Notes under the pieces: generated by a model | Database searches by the model: none | What the model saw: the letters and a program-made list of their open reading frames with translations, nothing else | Told to the model about the DNA's origin: nothing | Source: Candidatus Geocrenenecus dongiae | Lineage (GTDB): Archaea > Thermoproteota > Nitrososphaeria_A > Caldarchaeales > Wolframiiraptoraceae | NCBI GenBank assembly: GCA_023267855.1 | Contig: JALNLN010000019.1 | Coordinates: 5,546 to 29,545 of the forward strand | Direction: 5' to 3' | DNA length: 24,000 nucleotides | Position numbers and translations under genes: made by a program | In this document: positions 7,174-16,670 of the stretch, one piece after another | Position numbering within the stretch: position 1 is the first letter of the stretch | Layout of the letters: the number at the start of each line of letters is the position of its first letter

Positions 7174-8604
7174 CTACTTTGATTTGAGGAGTTCTCCAAC
7201 AATATTGTCTACCTCAGCTAAGAACATAGTCTTTTTTGCTAGCGGAATTTCTGCCCCCGCTGCTACATCATGCCCACCGCCAACTCCGCCAACGTTCTCA
7301 GCTGCCTTCCTCATCACATAGCCGAGGTTCAATCCTCTACTTACAAGTTTATTTGAAGCTCTGGCTGATATCTTGACTTTATCTCCTACTGTGGCCAACA
7401 TTATGAGGGGTTTATCTTCTGGGAGGAGTTCTGAAGATGAGAGTATGGAGGATGCTGAACTAACCATCCTATCATCTATAAACGTTCCACCATCTATGGC
7501 TACTATATATTTTAGTTCTTGCCAATTCTCTCTCTTAACAACATAGTCTAATACTTCCGAAAGCTTCTTCCTATATTCTTCTAGAATCTTTTGAGCCTGC
7601 ATTAGTAGTTCTCCTCTAGACCCCATAGCTATAGCTATACCTACCCATTCATTTCCAGTTTTTGCACAAGCATTAAGTAGAGAAGCAAATTCTCTAGCAT
7701 CTTTAAGAGGTGTCCAATCTTCTTCTCTAGTAAGTTCATATACTTTTCCAACAAGCTGTTTTACTATACTCGGTGGATAGTTAAGAGAAGATAGATACTT
7801 CATTAATCCATTGTATATCGTCTTCTTTTCTTCTTCTGTAAGTTCTGCGAAAACTCTCCACCTATCGTCTTCTTTCAATTTTATCTTTAATGAGCTTAGA
7901 AAGCTTACAGCATGTGCTTCACTTCCAGTAATGGTCGGTATGTATGGGCTTGTCGTCATCGCTAGAGCTAGATGGAGCGGTCTATAGGTTCTTCCATAGA
8001 ATAGTAAATCATCCACAACCTTAAGGAGACCAAGTTTTACAGAATCTTCAACAATCATTTTATTTAATCCTGTAAGTTCTCTTCCTTCAGAAGATTTATC
8101 TTGTAGATCTCCTAGAGCTCCTACAACAGCTACTGTGGAGAGTGTAGTATTTTCTTCATTTATCTCTCTAGCTAAGAAGTATACGATACCAGCACTACTT
8201 ATTTCTCTCGCTCCATCTACATTACAGATATGCGGGTTTACGTGTACCCAGTCTCTAGGTACATCAGCTTCAGATTCAAATTGATGGTGATCTAGGATTA
8301 CTGTAACCCTATCTCCAATTCTTTCTTTCAGAATCTCTAAGTAACCACTACCTATATCTGTCAATACTGCAACCATGTCTCTTGGCATATTCTGGACAGA
8401 TGTTAAGACTTCATCTATACTTCTAACAGCTCTAGTTATGAATTTAGCATTAGACCTTAAGAATAACATAGAAGCGATTGCTCCAGCAGATAGCCCATCA
8501 GCATCTGTATGACATAAGATCATAAATGATTTACCCTGTTCGATAAGTCCACTTAATTTATCCGCAGACTCATTAACCAAGTTCAAAAACTCTCTATAAC
8601 CCAT
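7174..8604 (-). CDS. RecJ-like DHH/DHHA1 phosphoesterase (archaeal Cdc45/GAN homolog)
   Basis: DHH motifs are present: ILCHTDADGLSAG (I), VLTDIG (II), ILDHHQ (III), GALGD (IV). The DHHA1 motif GGGHDVAAGA is also present. The gene sits directly downstream of rps15, a neighbourhood known for archaeal RecJ/Cdc45 homologs. Confidence 0.85.
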   Translation of the reverse strand: MGYREFLNLVNESADKLSGLIEQGKSFMILCHTDADGLSAGAIASMLFLRSNAKFITRAVRSIDEVLTSVQNMPRDMVAVLTDIGSGYLEILKERIGDRVTVILDHHQFESEADVPRDWVHVNPHICNVDGAREISSAGIVYFLAREINEENTTLSTVAVVGALGDLQDKSSEGRELTGLNKMIVEDSVKLGLLKVVDDLLFYGRTYRPLHLALAMTTSPYIPTITGSEAHAVSFLSSLKIKLKEDDRWRVFAELTEEEKKTIYNGLMKYLSSLNYPPSIVKQLVGKVYELTREEDWTPLKDAREFASLLNACAKTGNEWVGIAIAMGSRGELLMQAQKILEEYRKKLSEVLDYVVKRENWQELKYIVAIDGGTFIDDRMVSSASSILSSSELLPEDKPLIMLATVGDKVKISARASNKLVSRGLNLGYVMRKAAENVGGVGGGHDVAAGAEIPLAKKTMFLAEVDNIVGELLKSK

Positions 8605-12957: not shown

Positions 12958-13030
12958 GGGCCGGTAGTCTAGAGGCTATGACGCCGCCCTTACGAGGCGG
13001 AGGACGTGGGTTCGAATCCCACCCGGCCCA
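12958..13030 (+). tRNA. tRNA-Val (anticodon UAC), no intron, CCA not encoded
   Basis: Hand-folded cloverleaf. Acceptor GGGCCGG/CCGGCCC. Anticodon stem CCGCC/GGCGG with loop CTTACGA. T-arm GTGGG-TTCGAAT-CCCAC. Discriminator A. The gene is GC-rich against AT-rich flanks. Confidence 0.92.
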
Positions 13031-13132: not shown

Positions 13133-13507
13133 TTATTCTGTTTGCATGGTTTTTAAGATTTCTCTACCTTCTTCTTCTTCAAGTTTTAGAGTTTTCTTTT
13201 CTAGGAACGGGAATTTCTTAGAAGCTTCTGTGATTTTCGTGAGGTTGGTCCATGTGATCTTTACTTGAGAAGGGTTCTTCCTGCCTAATGCGTATGGGTC
13301 TATGTTCATTATACCTTCACTATCAGCTATGAGCGGTCCATAGAGGATATCTTTATCAACGATGTGGAGAAATATTATGTCTCCTTTCTTAACATCTTTA
13401 ACTTCTTTCCACATTCTTCCAGGTGCTCCAACAAGCTTTTTCTCCAAACATTCCTCCTCCATACCTCCACTACAAGTAAACTTCCAGTACCTTACTTCCT
13501 CACTCAT
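13133..13507 (-). CDS. Small stand-alone PUA-fold protein, DCD/EVE-like (predicted modified-nucleic-acid reader)
   Basis: 124 aa. The order and spacing of YWKFTC..EEECLEKKLVGAP, GDIIFLH, LYGPLIA.SEG..NIDPYA and PSQVKITW mirror the DCD-domain motifs (FGLP, LFL, PAQV). SD AAGGAGAG lies just upstream of the ATG, and a TATA-like TTTTATATG sits about 35 nt upstream. Confidence 0.55.
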   Translation of the reverse strand: MSEEVRYWKFTCSGGMEEECLEKKLVGAPGRMWKEVKDVKKGDIIFLHIVDKDILYGPLIADSEGIMNIDPYALGRKNPSQVKITWTNLTKITEASKKFPFLEKKTLKLEEEEGREILKTMQTE

Positions 13508-13674: not shown

Positions 13675-14409
13675 TTAAAGATCTTTAGGGTGGAATATTT
13701 TTTCAAGGCTTAGCCATTTTAAGGATTTCAAGATATATTTTTCTCTATGTGATTGCAGTTTTTTCTCTAATTTTTCTAGGGCCGTGTCAAGTTTTACGCC
13801 AATCTTTACTGAGATTATATGTGTAGTTAGTGTAAGATGCTGGCAATCTACAAACAATTCTCTTAGATCTTCTTCATCTAGTAGATTTTCACATTTATGG
13901 GGTGAGAGACCTCTCAGCAAGATCACGTCCAGTCCGTTCAATACTAATTTCTCAACAATCTTCCTAAATAATATTGAAGGTTTCTTTAATGTTAAATTGA
14001 TAGGATAACCTACATCTATCCATAAAGTATTTACTAGGTCTTGGTAATCTAATTCTACATACATGTCTAGGTACTCCATCCACTCATCTATATAGGCATC
14101 TTCAGTGATCGTTGAGCCGTCTAGAGAAGGATAAGAATAGGATATCTTTCCATGTTTAATTTCTTCTATCCAGCATGTTCTAAGAACCGGTTTTAGAGAA
14201 GACTGTAACGGGTATAGTGTATACATACTGGTAATAGATGTGAGGAGCGCTGGATTCTCTGTTTCCAAGATCAGCCACTTCTCTTTAACCTCCAATCTTA
14301 CATCAATCTCAACATTCTTCAAAATACTCCTAAACCATTCTTCTAAACTAGGTAAATCTACATACTCATCAATCATCTCATGTAAAACTAGTTTAACCAT
14401 TCCTTCCAT
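13675..14409 (-). CDS. Hypothetical protein, 244 aa, acidic, no family recognised
   Basis: Long uninterrupted ORF with coding-like composition. I can see no motif. Its ATG lies within 15 nt of the GC-rich structured element. Confidence 0.6.
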   Translation of the reverse strand: MEGMVKLVLHEMIDEYVDLPSLEEWFRSILKNVEIDVRLEVKEKWLILETENPALLTSITSMYTLYPLQSSLKPVLRTCWIEEIKHGKISYSYPSLDGSTITEDAYIDEWMEYLDMYVELDYQDLVNTLWIDVGYPINLTLKKPSILFRKIVEKLVLNGLDVILLRGLSPHKCENLLDEEDLRELFVDCQHLTLTTHIISVKIGVKLDTALEKLEKKLQSHREKYILKSLKWLSLEKIFHPKDL

Positions 14410-14571
14410 AGAAGATTCCAGTCTATGGTTTAGTGGGGTGCCCTCGATTTTTCGAGGGCTTCCCAGCGTTCAGAGTAGGCTTTACGCCTATCTCCTCATC
14501 TGCTGGTACGGGGGCCCCACAGCTCCCCCCACCCATAGAGGTTTACCCTATGGGTTAGGCATCAATAAAAA
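14410..14571 (-). ncRNA. GC-rich structured element: candidate TnpB omega-RNA (reRNA) scaffold / IS200-IS605 right end
   Basis: I count 76/130 G+C over 14431-14560, against 28-37% in sampled flanks. There are three local hairpins plus a long-range helix. It begins right after the tnpB-remnant stop. Strand is assigned from tnpB context only. Confidence 0.45.
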
Positions 14572-15168
14572 TTAATATTTACTAGTATAAGTATTTTCTG
14601 CAATCATTGTTAATGCTTTCTTCGCGATGTTTGCTGCAGCATTCACATCTCTATTATACTCTGCTCCACATATACTACATCTAAACTCTCTCGAATTGGA
14701 TGGTTCATTTATATGACCACATCTATGACATGTCCTCGAACTATTGTTCGGATCAACATATACTACTTCTACCCCATTTATTAATGCTTTATACTCAATA
14801 AACTTCTGCAATTTCCTATATGGTAGATTGTGTAATCTTCTATTGAGCTCTCTACTGTAATCTATTTTCTCTCTTAAGCCTTCTAGCTCTTCCATTACTA
14901 TCATAGGTTTAGGAAACTGTTTGACAAACTCCACTATCTCCTTCGATATAATATGTAATTGTTCTTTTACTTTCCTTCTTTCTCTATCTTTAAATTCTGG
15001 GGAGCTGATTACTATTCTTGACGAGAAGAATAGTTTTGAAATAGGAGAAGCTCCATTAACAGAGCTGGAGAGAAAAGCGGTTGAATGGTTTAGTAAAGTT
15101 TTCCTTCTCCATGAGGGTATATAATATTGGGGGGTGAAGCGCTTATCAAGATAATAGATATTAACTTC
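14572..15168 (-). pseudogene. tnpB: 5'-truncated tnpB (IS200/IS605-family, IS1341-type RNA-guided nuclease), C-terminal half only
   Basis: The frame is open for 198 codons from the in-frame TAA at 15169-15171, and the first start codon is GTG 14934. The sequence reads ...KDRERRKVKEQLHIISKEIVEFVKQFPKPMIVMEELEGL (RuvC-II Glu), NRRLHNLPYRKLQKFIEYKA, zinc finger CHRCGH...CSICG, and RDVNAAANI (RuvC-III Asp). The WED/REC and RuvC-I parts are missing. Confidence 0.8.
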
Positions 15169-15194
15169 TTATAGAGAGTATTTACTTGAGAGTT

Positions 15195-15821
15195 ATGCTT
15201 CTTCACATTGATGAAGAAACGATATTAGATCTAGTTACTTTGATAAGTGGGGAGAATGGAGAGAAGATTGTAAGATTCCTCTTGAAGAAGCCTGGGATAA
15301 CAGATGAAGAACTTTCTCAGCTTACGCATCTAGATATTAAAGAAGTTAGAAAAATTCTCCATAAACTCAATGAGAGCGGGATACTTTACTACGATCTAGC
15401 TAGAGAGAAAGATACTGGACACAGGATATTCAAATGGTATATTAGTCAGGAACAAGCGATAGGATTTATCTTAACTAATATGAGGAAGATTCTCGATAGA
15501 CTTGAAGAGAGATTAGAGTATGAGAAAAATCATCAATTCTACTGGTGTGGAACACAGGGATGTAGAAAACTGCCTTTTGAGGAAGCCATGGACCACCTAT
15601 TCAAATGTCCAACATGTAGAAAACCACTCCAACTAATAGACAATGAACAAACAATCAGAGCACTTGAAGAAAAGATCAACGAGGTCAAGAGACATTTAGA
15701 ACAACTATCTAAAGTGAAGAAGATAGAAGAGACTGAGAAACCAGAAGCTAAAGCTCCATCGAAACAGAAAGAATCTTCAAAGACAACTAAAACAAAGACA
15801 GCTACTACTGTGAAGAAATAA
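15195..15821 (+). CDS. tfe: Transcription factor E alpha subunit (TFE, TFIIE-alpha homolog)
   Basis: A winged-helix N-terminus ([49 protein letters not shown]) is followed by a zinc ribbon (CGTQGC...CPTCRKPL) and a Lys/Thr-rich tail. The track start TTG 15186 is an alternative. Confidence 0.85.
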
Positions 15822-16579: not shown

Positions 16580-16670
16580 GGGCCGGTAGTCTAGAGGCTA
16601 TGACGCCGCCCTGACAGAGATAAACTCCAGAATGCGGCGGAGGACGTGGGTTCGAATCCCACCCGGCCCA
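16580..16670 (+). tRNA. tRNA-Val (anticodon GAC) with an 18-nt intron in the anticodon loop
   Basis: Exons are identical to the 12958-13030 gene except for the anticodon loop. The loop CTGAC(A) is followed by an 18-nt insert (about 16617-16634, GAGATAAACTCCAGAATG if spliced 37/38) before C-GGCGG. Junctions one nt either way give the same length. Confidence 0.9.

Follow-up and report, generated by a model that had tools for sequence, protein, structure and literature searches.

What is the short, GC-rich element that lies between a fragment of a tnpB gene and a gene for a 244-amino-acid (aa) protein in the archaeon Candidatus Geocrenenecus dongiae (Caldarchaeales; Wolframiiraptoraceae)? We addressed this question in a stretch of 24,000 nucleotides (nt) of contig JALNLN010000019.1 (assembly GCA_023267855.1, positions 5,546 to 29,545 of the forward strand). 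This whole stretch is referred to as the window, and positions are numbered within it. A preliminary description of the same DNA had read the element as a retained omega-RNA and right-end module on the minus strand, beside a tnpB gene that had lost its N-terminal part. This core of the description is borne out by the C-terminus of the encoded TnpB, by a sharp element boundary, and by homologues whose helices covary. We conclude that the GC island is, with high probability, the right end and omega-RNA scaffold of a relic of a minus-strand, tnpB-only transposon of the IS200/IS605 type (IS1341-like). The identity, boundaries, structure, strand, and truncation of the element can be read directly from the comparisons presented below.

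We initially recounted the base composition. The preliminary description had reported 76 G+C among the 130 nt at 14431-14560, and the recount gave exactly this figure (58.5%). The window has a mean G+C content of 36.8% (standard deviation [SD], 4.6%), and 14431-14560 is its top 130-nt stretch. The sequence strings from which hairpins and helices had been drawn, read on the forward strand, were also all found in place: CCCTCGA (14441-14447) with TCGAGGG (14452-14458), TAGGC (14476-14480) with GCCTA (14486-14490), CCCATAG (14532-14538) with CTATGGG (14548-14554), GGGGCCCC (14511-14518), GTGGGG (14433-14438), CCCCAC (14527-14532), and CTATGG (14423-14428). The fold energy of the two strands beat dinucleotide shuffles by about 4 SD (z = -4.1 and -4.2), and none of 200 shuffles was as good. 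Because this is the highest G+C stretch, the strings lie where they had been reported, and the folding is about 4 SD beyond shuffles, the GC island is real and not due to chance. Fold energy by itself does not discriminate which of the two strands matters.

The gene fragment next to the island is the following feature.

14572 to 14997, minus strand: 5'-truncated tnpB, identified by its translation, by a match to Pfam PF07282 (E = 2.2e-24), and by homology to other copies that starts at 14997.

The remnant consists of the last 141 codons and the stop codon (14572-14574), and its C-terminus is the part that matches Pfam Cas12f1-like_TNB (PF07282). Its translation (...KDRERRKVKEQLHIISKEIVEF...VMEELEGL...RTCHRCGH...CSICGAEYNRDVNAAANIA...TSKY*) retains the RuvC-II Glu (VMEELEGL), a CxxC...CxxC zinc finger, and the RuvC-III Asp (YNRDVNAAANIA). 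Neither the WED and REC domains nor the RuvC-I Asp is present. Homology of the window to two other copies of the element, L001 (132-696) and L093 (43-612), begins at 14997, and the DNA derived from the insertion sequence (IS) comprises 14433-14997 only. Everything upstream is gone, including the left end and the first two thirds of the nuclease gene (about 255 codons); the DNA from 14998 up to the TFE gene (open reading frame [ORF] from 15186, likely ATG at 15195) is not IS derived. Since the missing codons include those for WED, REC, and the RuvC-I Asp, the locus can have no nuclease of its own. A cognate full-length TnpB, with the RuvC D-E-D triad and the zinc finger, is absent at this locus and present in the sister copy L093. 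The window locus is thus a relic of a member of an omega-RNA system and not a working system. A protein search for the N-terminal half, using the N-terminus of a relative, returned 540 close relatives of that relative, and none of the window lineage was among the 120 matches listed.

On the plus strand, a frame (...GELITILDEKNSFEIGEAPLTELERKAVEWFSKVFLLHEGI*; window 14998-15124) has no stop codon across the truncation point at 14997/14998 and runs to 15124. Possibly, what remains here is the 3' part of a host gene that was destroyed when the left part of the IS was removed.

We then compared the element with its sister copies. Near-identical fragments in other metagenome-assembled genomes (MAGs) were found by a protein search with the TnpB fragment, and more copies came from a DNA-pattern scan of metagenomes. 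An exact 24-mer across the loop of the terminal hairpin (P5, described below) had no match in genome contigs or metagenome contigs; this loop varies among copies, and a 36-mer from the P4-P3 region then recovered two more copies, L092 and L093. The comparison comprised eight further copies of the element (L001, L002, L004, L005, L006, L087, L088, and L092) and, in addition, L093, which is full length. The 139 to 141 nt past the tnpB stop codon are 97 to 100% identical to the window in every copy, compared with 78 to 99% in the adjoining coding DNA; the element is therefore better conserved among copies than the coding DNA beside it. The homology stops exactly after ...GGGCACCCCAC, which is window position 14433, and the boundary falls between 14433 and 14432. 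Six different right flanks follow: TAAACC... in the window, L087, and L088; ATATCC... in L001; ACATTT... in L002 and L005; TCATAC... in L004; TTGAAA... in L006 and L092; and TGAATC... in L093. A sharp end of homology with six unrelated flanks beyond it is the behavior of a transposon right end. The same criterion delimits scaffold and guide in Sulfolobus TnpB elements (PMC10640517).

The preliminary description had also pointed to full-length tnpB genes with the same 3' flank as a means to define this boundary, and L093 is such a gene. Its 396-aa TnpB carries the GIDIGE, VMEELEG, and NRDVN motifs and a zinc finger, and it matches solved TnpB and Cas12f chains (E down to 3e-21; E = 2.4e-5 to 8h1j). 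Given this intact protein, the lineage possesses nucleases of working length. Among the traits of the IS1341 group, the right end and the terminal hairpin P5 are defined, the window has no left end, and L093 has no ORF of at least 60 aa, the size of a tnpA, in the 416 nt upstream of its tnpB.

A wider set of relatives was obtained by scanning one genome per species with an alignment of TnpB C-termini. This gave 80 tnpB loci with TnpBs 33 to 59% identical, most of them from thermophilic archaea. An nhmmer search with the window element matched the tnpB 3' end of about 45 of the 80 loci, always on the tnpB strand. We aligned 33 sequences with MAFFT, without fitting them to any structure, and read off five helices and a pseudoknot. 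In this alignment 92.4% of the cells pair, compared with 78% in column shuffles and 34 to 49% with slid partners, and both sides change in 29 of the 41 pairs. We then built a covariance model, R1, in which the pseudoknot was left unpaired. Of the 80 loci, 63 gave a match to R1 (E < 1e-13), and all strong matches lie at the tnpB 3' end and on the tnpB strand. The other 17 comprise 11 bacterial loci, one from Woesearchaeota, two cut at contig ends, two partial loci, and one with only a weak match (L086, 30.5 bits). In the window, R1 gave a single match at 14427-14560 on the minus strand (121.7 bits, E = 2.7e-35). When 64 sequences were aligned to the model, 94.6% of the cells were paired, compared with 38 to 50% in slid controls, and compensatory changes were found in 36 of the 41 pairs. 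Covariation at homologous loci, which the preliminary description had named as a test of its helices, thus supports five helices and the pseudoknot. G-U cells outnumber A-C cells (204 versus 48); therefore, the tnpB-sense strand is the folding strand. Members of the family occur, among others, in Metallosphaera, Archaeoglobi, Bathyarchaeia, Methanomethylicia, Korarchaeia, Caldarchaeales, and Asgard MAGs.

The structure consists of the following parts, listed from the 5' end of the RNA.

14433 to 14560, minus strand: omega-RNA (also reRNA) scaffold, equal to the transposon right end; R1 match, seven other copies 97 to 100% identical, covariation.

14532 to 14554, minus strand: hairpin P1, 9 bp (14546-14554 with 14532-14540), loop UAAAC; 98.4% of cells paired, eight of nine pairs change on both sides.

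14510 to 14528, minus strand: hairpin P2 (14525-14528 with 14510-14513); 98.0% of cells paired, three of four pairs change on both sides.

14515 to 14520, minus strand: pseudoknot 5' strand, GUGGGG, partner 14433-14438; 95.7% of cells paired, five of six pairs change on both sides, equaled in 0 of 500 shuffles.

14463 to 14506, minus strand: long-range stem P3 (14502-14506 with 14463-14467), which encloses P4; 98.1% of cells paired, four of five pairs change on both sides.

14472 to 14495, minus strand: hairpin P4, 9 bp (14486-14495 with 14472-14480), bulged A at 14491, loop GUAAA; 85 to 86% paired.

14440 to 14459, minus strand: terminal hairpin P5, 8 bp (14452-14459 with 14440-14447), with a tetraloop; 95.8% of cells paired, eight of eight pairs change on both sides.

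14433 to 14438, minus strand: pseudoknot 3' strand, CCCCAC, the last six nt of the scaffold, where the homology of copies at six sites ends.

In the window lineage the scaffold lies wholly 3' of the tnpB stop codon, on the same strand, and starts 12 to 18 nt after it. The loop of P2, AGCUGUGGGGC, holds the 5' strand of the pseudoknot. The model left the pseudoknot columns unpaired; hence, this pairing did not guide the alignment. Its two strands vary together, as GUGAGC/GCUCAC, GUGAAC/GUUCAC, GUAAAC/GUUUAC, GCGGGU/ACCCGC, GUGACA/UGUCAC, and GUGGGG/CCCCAC, and the thermodynamic minimum free energy fold of the minus strand likewise pairs the 14515-14520 region with the 3' tail. The position of the P4 bulge shifts between sequences. 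The P5 tetraloop is AAAA in the window and UUCA, UUUA, or GAAA in relatives; it occupies positions -19 to -16 in the window and -20 to -17 in relatives, and the pseudoknot uses -6 to -1.

This structure revises several details of the preliminary description. Its three local hairpins are real, as seen by covariation across 64 homologues, but each is longer than drawn (8 bp for P5, 9 bp with a bulge for P4, and 9 bp for P1). The GGGGCCCC palindrome is no unit and instead spans the junction between the P2 loop and the P2 3' strand. The tail at 14433-14438 does take part in a long-range helix, as had been proposed, but its partner is the CCCCAC at 14515-14520 in the P2 loop. The proposed pairing of 14433-14438 with 14527-14532 stays at shuffle level (56% paired; reached in 235 of 500 shuffles) and is ruled out by covariation. 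An alternative conformer, in which this helix was extended by 14423-14428 pairing with 14533-14538, is accidental: 14423-14428 lies outside the element, in a flank that differs in every copy.

An independent small RNA (sRNA) gene, of the C/D, H/ACA, or HgcC type, could also lie next to a tnpB fragment by chance. GC islands mark structured RNAs in AT-rich thermophiles, which speaks for such a gene. We scanned the whole window at Rfam gathering thresholds and detected only two tRNAs, and a search of 14250-14750 at E <= 10 gave only a chance-level, sub-threshold resemblance to the C/D sRNA sR43 (12.5 bits, E = 1.3). The preliminary description had suggested HgcC-type covariance models; the Rfam HgcC model (RF00062) gave no match to 14250-14750 even at E <= 10, nor to the relatives, and apart from that resemblance no Rfam family reached E <= 10. 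The relatives likewise matched no omega-RNA-type or other family of Rfam 15. Against an independent gene, no Rfam family reaches threshold, the element always accompanies the tnpB 3' end, both in the 63 related loci and, apart from the window, in eight copies from its own lineage, and in relatives it is located inside the tnpB ORF. We give this explanation hardly any credence.

In one of these relatives (L018, 2985-3139), the whole scaffold lies within the tnpB ORF, and P1 encodes ...NIAHALTRGMGWG... and the tail. In the window (14433-14640), the ORF stops 12 to 18 nt before P1, one frame of the scaffold, which is noncoding here, still reads SMGGGSCGAPVPADEEIGVKPTLNAGKPS and resembles the L018 tail SMGWGSCEPPEPADEGIGAKPTPNAGSP, and the 3' end of the coding region (NIAKKALTM) resembles a second, degenerate version of P1. 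These observations suggest that a short duplication may have uncoupled the protein from the RNA in the window lineage. Some relatives have an ORF upstream of tnpB that may come from a recombinase. In Metallosphaera yellowstonensis (L010, 1321-1641), for example, a tnpB with the same omega-RNA family has an upstream ORF with a helix-turn-helix, the N-terminus of which we take to be serine-recombinase-like (a fragment of an IS607-type TnpA). If this reading is true, the RNA family spans tnpB-only and IS607-like elements.

Several points weigh against the identification of the island as a relic right end and omega-RNA scaffold. No curated RNA family matches it, so the family assignment rests on context and architecture. 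For the left end and the transposon-adjacent motif (TAM), an nhmmer search with the 416 nt upstream of the L093 tnpB gave no match in any locus compared. Most other copies lie at contig ends, which limits what they can say about an intact copy in the window's own genome. Transcription of the element, TnpB binding, and a role in cleavage are predicted by homology to characterized TnpB systems. Moreover, the covariation and the strand asymmetry would be equally expected if the top strand of the transposon folded as single-stranded DNA.

This last point leads to an explanation in which the sequence is conserved only for a DNA-level function of the transposon end, as single-stranded hairpins recognized by a transposase, with no role as RNA. 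Subterminal hairpins that act in single-stranded DNA are found at the ends of IS200/IS605 elements, 7 nt separate P5 from the end, and folding of top-strand DNA would produce the same strand asymmetry. However, a covarying structure of about 128 nt, with five helices and a guide-adjacent pseudoknot, far exceeds a subterminal hairpin. G-U pairs are frequent, the layout matches that of the ISDra2 omega-RNA (PMC10097598), and the 416 nt upstream of the L093 tnpB contain no tnpA-sized ORF. We consider a function at the DNA level only to be very improbable.

The omega-RNA of ISDra2 from Deinococcus radiodurans (Karvelis 2021, PMC8612924; Nakagawa 2023, PMC10097598) is a useful standard for comparison. 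It has a 116-nt scaffold with four stems and a pseudoknot from -5 to -3 beside the guide, and a UUUA tetraloop at -20 to -17 joins its trans-activating CRISPR RNA (tracrRNA)-like and CRISPR RNA (crRNA)-like parts (PMC10097598). A pseudoknot abutting the guide is found in Cas12 guide RNAs as well (PMC10097598). Like ISDra2, the window element lies at the tnpB 3' end and transposon right end, on the sense strand, with the flank in guide position 3' of the scaffold, and its family has a multi-stem scaffold of about 116 to 130 nt, a pseudoknot just before the guide, and a terminal tetraloop at about -20 to -17. In contrast to ISDra2, the pseudoknot partner is the loop of hairpin P2, the scaffold is wholly past the stop codon, and most of the nuclease gene is lost. 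There is no detectable sequence similarity, and the TnpBs are only distantly related (the E of 2.4e-5 to 8h1j). The architecture is thus the same despite unrelated sequence.

Other comparisons come from archaea. The TnpB-omega-RNA systems of Sulfolobus islandicus (PMC10640517; PMC11043419), likened here by description, also belong to thermophilic archaeal tnpB elements, some of them solo. Their TAM is TTTAA or TTTAT (PMC10640517; PMC11043419), and in SisTnpB1 the right end is conserved save for its 3' end, which is the guide (PMC10640517). In Halobacterium salinarum, IS1341-type tnpB genes have sense-overlapping RNAs (sotRNAs) that extend over the 3' end of tnpB, and one tnpB pseudogene that is truncated still has its sotRNA (PMC4615843). 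An "RE-like tetraloop," an 8-bp UUCA-type hairpin near the RNA end, is shared by haloarchaeal sotRNAs and HgcC (RF00062) (PMC4615843). P5, an 8-bp terminal hairpin with UUCA or UUUA in relatives, is a hairpin of this kind. It differs in the AAAA loop of the window and in the lack of a match to the HgcC model, and the window element is known from sequence alone.

TldR proteins, TnpB-like nuclease-dead repressors that work with guide RNAs, are full length and have an inactivated RuvC and conserved guides that target promoters. As in TldR loci, the TnpB-derived locus of the window is no longer a transposon nuclease, and a guide-RNA module lies beside a host gene. Unlike in TldR, only 141 C-terminal codons are present, the "guide" is the adjacent flank, and the 3' end and stop vary among relics, with a frameshift in L088 and loss of the stop in L087. 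Membership in TldR is ruled out by the 141-codon fragment and the variable 3' end.

From the characterized systems (PMC8612924, PMC10097598, and PMC10640517), we infer the following mechanism for intact copies. Transcription would proceed from the 3' part of tnpB across the right end and into the flanking DNA, and the RNA would fold into P1 to P5 and the pseudoknot joining the P2 loop to the last six nt of the scaffold. TnpB would bind the scaffold, and the next 16 to 20 flank-derived nt would serve as the guide. The complex would cut TAM-adjacent DNA matching the guide, namely, the empty donor site, and would thereby favor retention of the transposon. The window relic has no nuclease gene in cis, and its scaffold is still intact. 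Its excision should be impossible, because the left end is absent from the window.

The relics closest to the window show how such a locus changes. L006, L087, and L088 are orthologous to it and differ by few substitutions (96 to 99% identity). Differences in the scaffold among these four are confined to loops and junctions, and no stem is disrupted. The end of the ORF is unstable: the stop codon is lost in L087, and a 2-nt deletion shifts the frame in L088. L088 also bears the 3' allele of the other IS subfamily, which suggests that gene conversion may occur between copies. L006 matches the window at 99.7% identity between 18009 and 14432, and exactly at the right-end boundary it switches to a different flank (TTGAAATAAC..., toward an ilvC-type gene; L006 3577-3672). 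A shorter relic of the same IS, L092 (528-910), shares this flank. Either sister IS copies have recombined here, or the contig of L006 is a chimera joined across the repeat.

These relics bear on whether the omega-RNA is still used, that is, transcribed and loaded in trans by the TnpB of an intact L093-type copy to form an orphan guide ribonucleoprotein (RNP). The scaffold is 97 to 100% identical to those of the other copies, the stems are undisrupted in the four orthologous relics, a metagenome contains a full-length TnpB from this lineage (L093), and the Halobacterium sotRNA at a truncated tnpB offers a precedent (PMC4615843). However, this full-length copy is known from a metagenome and not from the same genome. 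The relics are young, and the intact scaffold may reflect too little time or gene conversion, as the L088 allele illustrates. Furthermore, the guide has no second target in the window, and with no left end there would be no empty donor site to police. We regard present-day use in trans as unlikely, although worth keeping in mind; if true, it would add a function to the relic omega-RNA scaffold and would not replace that interpretation.

Downstream of the scaffold, two features lie in the flank.

14413 to 14432, minus strand: guide-equivalent flank, UAAACCAUAGACUGGAAUCU, which adjoins the 3' end of the scaffold; its use as a guide is predicted.

13675 to 14409, minus strand: gene for a conserved hypothetical protein of 244 aa, outside the element; homologues with 38 to 44% identity.

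A guide length of 16 to 20 nt was assumed from other TnpB systems. The preliminary description had placed the element no more than 15 nt from the ATG at 14409 and had the guide equivalent covering the start of the gene. Both claims need correction: the scaffold ends at 14433, 23 nt away, and a guide of 16 to 20 nt (14432 to about 14413) does not quite reach the start codon, with 3 nt between the flank and the ATG. The content of the guide position simply reflects where the element sits. Elsewhere in the window, the flank has no match at up to 3 mismatches, and 12-nt seed matches occur at chance level. A plus-strand segment, CACTAAACCATACTATGAAAGCTTC (2813-2837), matches the right-end tip and flank (CAC|TAAACCATAGACTGGAATCTTC) at 20 of 25 positions (80%), including the first 9 nt of the guide. 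We judged this match a coincidence, because matches of equal quality are common in the repeat listing and 12-nt seeds occur at the chance rate.

The 244-aa protein has no Pfam or NCBIfam match, and its AlphaFold2 model, from a three-sequence alignment, is too poor for a fold search (mean predicted local distance difference test score [pLDDT] of 59). In a related lineage, its homologues lie 6 nt downstream of an ABC-transporter permease gene, without the element. The proximity of the element raises the possibility that the relic was exapted as a promoter or structured 5' leader of this gene, with read-through supplying the transcript. The right end, 23 nt from the ATG, covers the place of the promoter of a leaderless or short-leader mRNA. 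No oligo-T tract lies between 14433 and the ATG, and at least two other assemblies have the same arrangement with an intact, identical copy of the gene. On the other hand, the element, as a mobile right end, occurs next to six unrelated flanks, its conserved features are independent of the gene, one assembly links the same relic to a different, convergent gene, and the homologues in another lineage do without it. The support for exaptation is positional, and we consider it improbable. Of the two readings offered in the preliminary description, the orphan guide RNA of a relic fits the data, whereas the exapted cis-regulatory leader gained no positive evidence.

A TATA-like sequence, TATATAATATT, is located at 15118-15128, between the TFE gene and the tnpB relic, and could drive minus-strand transcription into the relic and on to the 244-aa gene. 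A second one, TTATAG (15169-15174), precedes the likely start codon of TFE, at 15195, by about 24 nt. A transcript might start upstream of or inside the tnpB fragment, run through the scaffold into the 244-aa gene, and be processed by the TnpB of a sister copy, but to us this is a distant prospect. If true, it would couple expression of a host gene to the activity of a transposon nuclease or would yield an orphan guide RNP with a spacer matching the -23 to -4 region of the 244-aa gene.

A few other features of the window deserve mention. The runner-up G+C peak (53%) at 7206-7369 falls within a 476-aa archaeal RecJ/GAN-type nuclease gene (7174-8604, minus strand) and has no RNA family match. 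ARAGORN found two tRNAs elsewhere in the window as its only RNA genes (16580-16670 and 12958-13030). The two genes share identical 3' halves, and a single base, in the anticodon, separates their 5' halves. The former is Val(UAC); the latter, labeled Ser(tga) by ARAGORN, has GAC at the same anticodon position and an intron of about 20 nt and looks like Val(GAC). The minus strand encodes, at 13133-13507, a protein of 124 aa with a match to the "Development and cell death" (DCD) domain (PF10539, E = 6.5e-15).

The identification of the GC island as a relic right end and omega-RNA scaffold assigns the most GC-rich spot of the window to a known class of object and gives it exact boundaries. It also corrects the annotation of a 120- to 145-aa "TnpB family protein," which is a gene fragment. 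Relics like this one mark breakpoints, where sister IS copies recombine or assemblies go wrong. The family is uncurated in Rfam 15, yet it is of a known kind, the omega-RNA. The comparison yielded a usable covariance model and a covariation-supported structure for an omega-RNA family that is widespread in thermophilic archaea, and such scaffolds are of practical interest for thermostable, compact genome editors.

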